A DNA stretch of 63,784 nt, the filler included, from Collodictyon triciliatum (Eukaryota), in NCBI GenBank assembly GCA_043381765.1. It is 5 parts of 5 records of this genome, joined end to end, with 100 filler letters (N's around TTAATTAATTAA, not from the genome) between each part and the next. Parts side by side here need not be neighbours in the genome. Positions count along the whole stretch, not along the records: positions 19,471 to 38,772 come from JBHJMP010001304.1; 4 more parts are not named here. One strand, given 5' to 3'. Each line of letters starts with the position of its first letter. Positions within the stretch are counted from its first letter, which is position 1. Made by a program: the position numbers and the translations under genes. The notes under the pieces were generated by a model. It made no database searches. It saw only the letters and a program-made list of their open reading frames with translations, and was not told the origin of the DNA. This document shows positions 31,621 through 32,700 of this stretch, piece by piece.

Positions 31621-32492
31621 TATGTTTATATAGACGAACTTTCCGAATAGCAGTTATCTTTATTAGCGATAAAAAAAATATGTTGGAGTAGACGCAGGCA
31701 AGTTTAATTTGGTTTATATGGTGGATGAGATAGGTAAATAATTACGATGCACGGCACACCAAACAAGACATGATAGCAAATCTCTTAAAAATCACAAAAT
31801 ACTCTTGTGCGAGAAAGAAAAATACAATTTTTCAGGGATATACATGGCAACGGATTTACGAAGTGCTGTTTCTTTTGGTCCCATAACTTTTGAAGAGAAT
31901 CAGCAGTTTGAGACACCAAGAGTATCTTTAATGGATTTAGAGACAAAACTGAGTAAACATAATTCATGCACGGTCGATTATGATAAATTTCTAAAATATC
32001 TCTATGAAATCGAGATACCAGATAAAACTTTCCAGATTTTATGAACAAGTAACTTTTCGAAAGATGAGATGGAGACAGTATGTTAATACAAAAAGAAGTG
32101 AAGAATTGTTTACGGACCGAATCGAAAAGACATTTGGCAAGGATGTTGTACTGGCGTATGGAGACTGGAGCAGAAAATATCTCAGATGAAAGATTTTATG
32201 GCAACAACCGGAAGAGGATTACGAAAAATACTATCCAAACGTTTTGAAACGGTCAGTGAAGATGAATTTAGAACCTCCAAGGTGTGTTGCAACTGCGAAA
32301 AAGAACTGGAATACATGAAACCGAAAGGAGATTCAAAAAAGAGTATATATATGTCTCGTATGAAAAGAATGCAATCGCTCAGAAAGCAAACAAACTGTAT
32401 TCTTGACAAGGGACTTTAACAACGCTAAAAATATACTTAACAAAGTTCTTTTAATCCTTCAAAATATGCATACACCACTCTTTAAAAAATAG
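31621..32492 (+). pseudogene. Fanzor1-type (eukaryotic TnpB homologue) RNA-guided endonuclease pseudogene, 5'-truncated, intronless
   Basis: Across several frameshifts and three premature stops the frames give: YIDELSE; VGVDAGK (RuvC-I D, 31691); LETKLSKHNSCTVDYDKFLKYL; FRKMRWRQYVNTKRSEE; VLAYGDWS; EDEFRTSKVCCNC (RuvC-II E, 32264, and first zinc-finger pair); LV*KEC; TRDFNNAKNI (RuvC-III D, 32412); stop TAG at 32490-32492. Confidence 0.85.
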
Positions 32493-32700
32493 GCTGTTGG
32501 GTCTTTCCTGGCAGCCTTCACCACTTCACAATCATAGTGAAAAAAGTGATGAGACCTTGGATACTAGCGACCAGGTTTACCAATCGAAAGATGGTATACT
32601 CCTTCTAGTAAAATATAAAGTAACATGAAATAACATTTAAAGAGGAATTGTAGACAAAATAGTGTACGGTGTGTATCCGGCGCCTTGGTGTCCTCATCGT
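32491..32700 (+). ncRNA. Candidate Fanzor omegaRNA scaffold / element right end
   Basis: Hairpins directly after the Fanzor stop: 32491-32517, about 32518-32552, and 32562-32610 (with a GAAA tetraloop), plus a small hairpin at 32679-32692. Boundaries are inferred. Confidence 0.5.

Follow-up and report, generated by a model that had tools for sequence, protein, structure and literature searches.

Whether the hairpins that directly follow a Fanzor-like gene in the eukaryote Collodictyon triciliatum (GenBank assembly GCA_043381765.1) encode the scaffold of the nuclease's guide RNA (omegaRNA), and in what state gene and scaffold are found today, is the question raised by this locus. It lies in a stretch of 63,784 nucleotides (nt), hereafter the window, in which five parts of five records are joined by filler and positions 19,471 to 38,772 come from JBHJMP010001304.1; all coordinates count along the window. 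An earlier note had read, in 32491-32700, a candidate omegaRNA scaffold starting at the Fanzor stop codon and composed of several pairings (numbered i to v here). Our analysis favours, with a probability of roughly 0.6, the reading that a dead Fanzor1 copy, truncated at its 5' end, has its right-hand tail at 32490 to about 32610, and that stems i and ii of this tail are most likely decayed forms of two hairpins, SL0 and SL1, of intact relatives. What stands of the scaffold proposal is that relatives encode a covarying RNA at this place and that stems i and ii fit SL0 plus SL1, weakly when the whole window is searched and more clearly within the 201 nt where it would be expected, but stem iii could not be related to the relatives' 3' module and the whole is a relic beside a dead gene. 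The features on which the argument turns are the following.

31673-32492, + strand: decayed Fanzor1 remnant, RuvC/TNB half only (translations, tblastn, structure matches)
32490-32492, + strand: TAG stop closing the last open piece (relatives' stop positions)
32491-32517, + strand: stem i, an 11-base-pair (bp) hairpin with three G-U pairs and a 5-nt loop (RNAfold, model R3)
32518-32552, + strand: stem ii region, an SL1-like two-tier hairpin (R3 alignment, local match of model R2)
32562-32610, + strand: stem iii, a 6-bp closing stem TACTAG/CTAGTA round an imperfect hairpin with a GAAA loop (RNAfold)
32610-32622, no strand: outer limit of similarity to diverged copies, likely the right limit of the repeated unit (contig tables, depth in run X10)
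32679-32692, + strand: hairpin v, GGCGC-CTTG-GTGTC, 5 bp with two G-U pairs (read in the sequence)

A Fanzor gene does stand on the same strand directly before the hairpins, as had been noted: pieces of the remnant at 31673-32492 (+) match the structures of PpFz1 (9cf0, expectation value (E) 0.011) and SpuFz1 (8gkh, E 0.031) in collinear order, and the remnant also matches P0007, at 634 amino acids (aa) the closest full-length protein and identical to the product of the metagenomic locus L001. P0007 in turn matches SpuFz1 over residues 14-607 (E 9e-37), PpFz1 (7e-34) and GtFz1 (7e-16). A search of 1.84 billion representative proteins returned 99 matches at E <= 0.001, with P0001 and P0006 closest to the remnant (63-64% identity over the matched stretch). 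The motifs RuvC-I (VGVDAGK), RuvC-II (AYGDWS) and RuvC-III (TRDFNNAKNI) are kept, together with the zinc-finger motifs CCNCEKEL and CLV*KEC, and one in-frame stop falls inside the second zinc-finger CxxC. At least three frame changes and in-frame stops (TAA 31739, TGA 32361 and others) break the remnant, which has to be translated in at least four frame pieces. When P0007 was compared with the window by tblastn, residues 366-602 only were aligned (E 5e-27 and 3e-20); residues 1-365 had no counterpart in the window, also once an upstream retroelement tail had been removed. The remnant thus appears to be the last 40% of the protein, its first ~365 residues being gone, and it does not offer a complete WED/REC/RuvC/TNB frame with the catalytic D, E and D. 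Judged from its sequence, the Fanzor1 gene is dead, truncated and frameshifted, and no working guide-RNA locus; with the nuclease gene frameshifted and some 365 residues missing from its start, the locus cannot act in cis. Pfam gave nothing relevant on the four frame pieces, a search with a 105-aa remnant piece for longer proteins gave no match, neither a metagenome search with the window's own piece nor a viral contig search with P0006 returned a close relative, and the window holds no second copy of the Fanzor tail. In a quick tree, by which the placement is provisional, the window's sequence pairs with P0006 (support 98), and this pair falls within a 15-row group that includes the metagenomic loci L001-L009 and L054, with weak support (86) and on a long branch.

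What the end of such a gene looks like when intact was read from metagenomic relatives. An alignment of 15 relatives, used to scan metagenome contigs, gave 505 loci, of which the best 80 were kept; most of these carry intact, intronless genes, some on contigs of 100-250 kilobases (kb), and L002, L027, L064, L023 and others are intact intronless relatives on lake and marine metagenome contigs of 100-254 kb. The stop codon, located in 76 of the 80 loci, lies anywhere between 81 nt upstream and 65 nt downstream of the start of a common block, and wherever it falls the block runs from GTTGATTTTAC to GGCGTTTTAAATGTGCAAAGGTGTAAA, the latter motif being recovered by fuzzy search in 64 of the 76. Across these 76 loci the reading frames continue through SL0 and usually SL1, both of which lie inside the last ~30 codons of the genes. 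Since SL0 and SL1 of the relatives lie within the last codons, TAG at 32490 would be a premature stop, and for that reason the start of the scaffold at the Fanzor stop codon, which the earlier note had described, is a coincidence.

The relatives' block has two modules. For the 3' module we aligned 53 distinct tails, i.e., the 60 loci with both motifs less four removed for length and three duplicates; RNAalifold returned no pairs on this alignment (A2), and structures were written by hand from single-sequence folds and tested by pair counts. The module is made up of a long closing helix, which falls into two parts, a small hairpin that is optional, and an inner hairpin of 6-7 bp. In the 53 tails 81.7% of the cells are paired, against at most 56.9% with slid partners, and 18 of the 25 pairs are altered on both sides, which none of 500 shuffles equalled. 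A model built from this module, R1, is found at the 3' end of the gene in 69 of the 80 loci at E <= 0.01; among the 11 loci without such a match, seven contigs end too early, L009, L067 and L069 have none, and L029 is matched at its left end only. R1 also matches the opposite strand just upstream of five genes (the left ends of L029, L048, L056, L062 and L080), and in the four loci inspected the left end is an inverted copy of the block's last ~31 nt. Because the left end carries this inverted copy, the RNA block finishes with the right terminal inverted repeat of the element. This repeat, 31 nt long, makes up the 3' strand of the closing helix, and variable DNA follows it: over 1485 pairs from 55 loci, mean pairwise identity is 0.75 for the final 30 nt of the block and 0.32 for the 30 nt beyond. 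Extra stand-alone scaffold copies were seen downstream in two loci, L038 (1702-1794) and L065 (5453-5532), reminiscent of the published gene-less 'ghost' loci.

In the 5' module, SL1 is a two-tier hairpin with 5-8 bp in its outer and 4-8 bp in its inner stem, together with a (T)TCA(C) bulge and an internal loop reading GAAAAAGT. Its alignment comprises 36 distinct sequences from 60 loci (nine loci were unparsed, three of which were restored by motif, nine implausible parses were dropped, and the rest were lost as duplicates), with 92.2% of the cells paired and 9 of 10 pairs altered on both sides. The SL1 model derived from it, R2, finds SL1 in 23 of 32 non-training loci at E <= 0.012 and with at least 22.7 bits. 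In the nearest clade (L001-L009, L054) SL1 is abutted by SL0, a hairpin of 12-16 bp located ~100 nt ahead of the scaffold block; in ten sequences of SL0 plus SL1, 92.5% of the cells are paired and 12 of 20 pairs are altered on both sides, and for SL0 alone this holds for 8 of 11 pairs. R3 is the SL0 plus SL1 model of this nearest clade and was built after the resemblance to the window had been noticed. SL0 consists of the codons for RPxxFxR...G, the C-terminal tail of Fanzor1, so that heavy covariation and a preserved peptide pattern are found in the same nucleotides, and further conserved C-terminal peptides of L001-L009 and L054 (SFT; EKVGQSVDF, KSKTIVV and similar) fall on SL1 and on the start of the block. 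The RNA structure thus seems to shape the protein tail of Fanzor1, whose C-terminal motifs seem to be, at least in part, an imprint of the RNA.

Against this background the tail of the window copy can be assessed. R3 aligns over its full model length with 32490-32561 (+) at 10.7 bits, as the third of 15 matches in 127.6 kb, and within the expected 201 nt this match has an E of 0.0016, a rough value and, as the model was built post hoc, a somewhat flattering one; the minus strand there reaches 6.2 bits. In the alignment stem i fills 11 of 11 SL0 model pairs, and SL1 is represented by an outer TCACC/GATGA stem with 4 of 5 pairs, an inner CAC/GTG stem with 3 of 4 pairs, the 5' bulge ACTT and a 3' internal loop AAAAAAGT where the relatives have GAAAAAGT. 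None of the other listed hairpin loci with at least 11 pairs is among the R3 matches, which means that a long hairpin by itself does not account for the score. The fit of stems i and ii to SL0 and SL1 lends moderate support to their descent from these hairpins and is no proof of it.

The pairings themselves can be read where they had been placed: stem i with its 11 bp and three G-U pairs (32491-32517), stem ii with TTCAC/GTGAA and CACT/AGTG (within 32522-32548), and stem iii with TACTAG at 32562-32567 and CTAGTA at 32605-32610 enclosing TACC-A-ATC-GAAA-GAT-GGTA. RNAfold returned stems i, ii and iii as both the minimum-energy and the centroid fold of 32491-32612 (-37.4 kcal/mol). The comparison with shuffled controls that had been recommended came out in favour of this core, the 122 nt giving a z-score (z) of -2.92 on the + strand, where 1 of 200 shuffles was as good (z -3.27 in a separate run); for the full 210 nt z was -2.29 and 2 of 200 shuffles folded as well. 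Among 142 random 122-nt pieces of the window, three reached z <= -2.9 (a few low-complexity pieces gave no z and were counted as not reaching the threshold), i.e., the core is in the top ~2%. Since 32537-32613 alone gives a z of only -0.63, the fold signal sits in stems i and ii, and stem iii alone (32562-32610) gives -2.26. Excluding simple repeats, at least ~20 loci in 127.6 kb of strand have a hairpin of at least 11 contiguous pairs, and of those listed stem i has the most G-C pairs (six). For pairing iv, GGTCT (32500-32504) is indeed complementary to AGACC (32552-32556), but the suggested pseudoknot finds no support, a 5-nt complement being no better than chance. Rfam (31000-33500, E <= 10) gave three chance-level matches, none in the tail, and ARAGORN predicted neither a tRNA nor a tmRNA.

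Where the copy ends was approached through other sequencing runs. Four runs, freshwater metagenomes and the small run X10, which is guessed to be RNA, were aligned to 31650-32760 at >=80% likeness; near-identical contigs were taken as the same locus and diverged contigs as other copies, and tables from contigs of this kind show presence, not absence. No run recorded as RNA was listed as containing the stretch. Diverged copies cover ~31620-32520 well, with a depth of 126-395 in X10. From there the X10 depth falls from 299 (32421-32521) to 35.5 (32522-32622) and to 0 (32623-32723), the last value being shared by X1 and X3. The furthest listed diverged pieces end at 32567, 32570 (X3) and 32610 (X10); copies hence match to 32567-32610 and none past 32622, but the depth falls about 8-fold already after 32521. 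At the right limit CTAG is followed by TAAAATA (32605-32615). The element end had been expected between about 32610 and 32705, and the lower bound agrees with these data, as no diverged copy passes ~32610-32622; we infer an end at about 32610. Hairpin v, which had been included, is covered only by a same-locus contig (X2 record 23, 32656-32806, one mismatch) and on that account lies outside the element; its pairing is present at 32679-32692 but is no more than expected by chance. A resemblance of its sequence, GGCGCCTTGGTGTCC, to the repeat variant of L004 we judged to be chance.

Taken together, these observations may be put into the following scheme. In intact relatives, the transcript over the gene end folds into SL0 and SL1, followed in some cases by a small hairpin, and then into the long closing helix, which surrounds a 7-bp hairpin and has the 31-nt right inverted repeat as its 3' strand; the flanking DNA just beyond this repeat would then provide the guide that directs the nuclease. 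In the window copy, stems i and ii would once have been inside the reading frame that is now closed by the premature TAG, the 3' module, where stem iii stands, would have diverged in the lineage or decayed past recognition, and the inverted repeat of the family would be gone. The descent of stems i and ii from SL0 and SL1 and the guide function are what we infer here.

The strongest alternative to be weighed is that the tail past 32490 has nothing to do with a scaffold and is decayed coding or untranslated sequence, or a junction, with chance hairpins, and a number of results weigh on its side and against descent from SL0 and SL1. Over the whole window the R3 match has an E of 0.5, which is not significant, and two unrelated sites outscore the tail (21816-21885 on the minus strand with 13.1 bits and 15855-15924 on the plus strand with 11.9 bits). 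R2 gave 21 matches at E <= 10 in the whole window, none of them in the tail, and its best match within 32440-32640 (32518-32547, +) reaches 5.9 bits (E 0.17), compared with at least 22.7 bits in the relatives. With filters off, R1 gave 17 matches at E <= 10 in the whole window, none in 32400-32760, and a search restricted to 32420-32760 yielded 1.8 bits over 32533-32611 (+) with an E of 2.9. No significant sequence similarity to the tail of any relative was found: pieces of the tail rank 1424 or worse among 6374 window pieces when compared with 47 repeat variants, the tail ranks 679 of 6374 against the relatives' 5' block, and local alignment with 76 relatives' tails gave a best z of 1.47 and a median of -0.27. 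At the protein level TPLFKK of the window aligns with RPxxFxR, whose codons make up the 5' strand of the relatives' SL0; stem i therefore lies ~20 nt downstream of the expected register. As to folding, the minus strand of the 122 nt folds nearly as well (z -2.37, 2 of 200 shuffles), and the fold signal is therefore only partly strand-specific; about 2-3% of random window pieces fold equally well, and long hairpins of comparable size are found at no fewer than the ~20 loci mentioned above. The other copies add that position 32526, a T in the window, is an A in nine of nine other-copy contigs, which breaks TTCAC/GTGAA with no compensating change among the variants listed, although the base is a bulge in the R3 fold, and that two X10 contigs pass directly from 32464 or 32476 to 32540 and are thus without stem i. 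Two observations speak against a chance origin. The nearest clade has a long hairpin set directly against a two-tier hairpin whose internal loop is A6GT, and the same order occurs here at the expected place and on the expected strand, with the E of 0.0016 given above; and diverged copies share the tail up to 32567-32610, i.e., it travels with the Fanzor remnant. We consider an unrelated tail rather unlikely, and descent from SL0 and SL1 remains our preferred reading.

Two further possibilities concern what the tail would have become. If the tail were still a functional guide-RNA gene, acting in trans with an intact Fanzor1 encoded elsewhere, it would resemble the 'ghost' loci of Spizellomyces, which have no Fanzor gene and, according to Saito et al. 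2023 (PMC10432273), give active guide RNAs; the unusually well folded 122-nt core and the extra stand-alone scaffolds of L038 and L065 would be in line with it. Yet the right inverted repeat and 3' module, kept by 69 of 80 relatives, are undetectable in the window, SL1 scores far lower here than in any relative in which it was detected, the T at 32526 is private to the window, and no intact copy is known, all of which makes a function in trans very improbable. The searches behind the first of these points were several. R1 and the motif searches did not find in the window's tail a 3' module that ends in a right inverted repeat and is followed by a variable guide, the right-repeat motif was absent at up to nine edits, and no inverted-repeat partner of the tail was found left of the gene (171 of 500 shuffles score as high). 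Stem iii stands in the place expected of the 3' module and right repeat and ends where the similarity between copies ends, and its homology to them is unproven. Conceivably, the lineage of the window copy and P0006 kept SL0 and SL1 but exchanged the 3' module and repeat for the TACTAG...CTAGTA helix ending at the junction of CTAG and TAAAATA, which we regard as distinctly doubtful.

Several candidates were tried on the tail and discarded. Alignments by eye of the tail with the 5' block and right repeat of the relatives, such as those of GGTTTACCAATC with GTGTTTACAATC of L007, of GGTATAC or GTAAAAT with GGTGTAAAA, and of SEKSDETLDTS with GEKVGQSVDFT failed the rank tests and were dropped; a tandem duplication of 32440-32500 and 32501-32570 was rejected, as 162 of 500 shuffles were as good. 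A protein search with the 57-aa open frame of the tail gave no match.

The arrangement can be compared with known guide-RNA systems. For TnpB of IS200/IS605 elements (ISDra2, for instance), the sequence encoding the guide RNA lies at the gene's 3' end and extends across the right end of the element, and the guide is taken from the flank; these elements are prokaryotic and have no long terminal inverted repeats. The Fanzor tail is likened to the ISDra2 type, from description only, in its position at the gene end and in a guide that would come from the flank. Spu-1 elements, as described by Saito et al. 2023 (PMC10432273), have repeats of 30 nt, a scaffold of 75 nt that extends over the right repeat, and a variable guide of 14-15 nt. 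SpuFz1 belongs to the same protein family as P0007 (E 9e-37, nearly full length), and Spu-1 and the metagenomic relatives are alike in their flanking inverted repeats of ~30 nt, an RNA over the right repeat and variable sequence next to it. They differ in that the RNA of the relatives begins ~100 nt earlier than that described for SpuFz1, inside the last codons (SL0, SL1). Unlike the SpuFz1 system, the window copy is without the repeat and without the first 60% of the gene, and it matches SL0 plus SL1 weakly. For three Fanzor1 RNAs Xu et al. 2024 (PMC11423790) report a common first stem-loop of seven base pairs, whereas the part between this stem-loop and the guide varies, with one to three stem-loops. 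A conserved 5' part and a free 3' module in the GtFz1 and PpFz1 RNAs, likened here by that description only, agree with a window copy in which stems i and ii are recognisable and stem iii is not; the difference is that the RNA of the window is a relic beside a dead gene.

Elsewhere in the window, the best whole-window matches of R1 and R3, at 48936-49053 (-), 23426-23525 (+), 21816-21885 (-) and 15855-15924 (+), have E values of 0.06-0.24; none adjoins a Fanzor-like frame, and they were taken for chance. The last of them contains AAGTTGGACATTCTATTGA, which resembles AAGTTGGTCAATCAGTTGA of the scaffold, but lies inside a Roc-COR coding frame. This frame belongs to 13956-17535 (-), where two long open frames carry a Roc-COR GTPase part and a protein kinase (Pfam E 1e-18 and 3e-34) and which, by these domain matches, appears to be a ROCO-type kinase in long exons. 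A TspO/MBR-like frame at 33177-33545 (-) is under the Pfam cut-off.

Immediately left of the Fanzor remnant, 31239-31634 is the tail of a poly(A) retroelement, truncated at its 5' end and lying on the minus strand, with a T-run at 31240-31250; a target duplication of 13 bp, ATGTTTATATAGA, stands on either side of it (31226-31238 and 31622-31634). In run X10 its abundance is 5-10 times that of the Fanzor part, and in other copies the tail continues differently past 31618; the loose-end motif that follows 31618 in those copies was not found elsewhere in the window. Its 98-aa open frame had no Pfam match. An exact 11-nt direct repeat, GTAAAATATAA, at 31096-31106 and 32608-32618 brackets the repeated block (~31108-32610) and could be either chance in AT-rich DNA or the target duplication of a composite insertion, since some two exact 11-mer repeats would arise by chance in 4 kb even if all bases were equally frequent.

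In conclusion, the locus is an ordinary relic of a known kind. Its relatives form a large clade of intact, intronless Fanzor1 genes on lake and marine contigs with a strongly covarying guide-RNA scaffold, which starts ~100 nt inside the gene and ends as the 31-nt right inverted repeat, and the three models derived from it (R1-R3) can serve to assess other Fanzor tails of this genome. Should the lineage of the window copy and P0006 indeed have exchanged its 3' module and repeat, the tail would represent a lineage-specific guide-RNA design and not decay, and the 3' half of a Fanzor guide RNA would be swappable together with the transposon ends.

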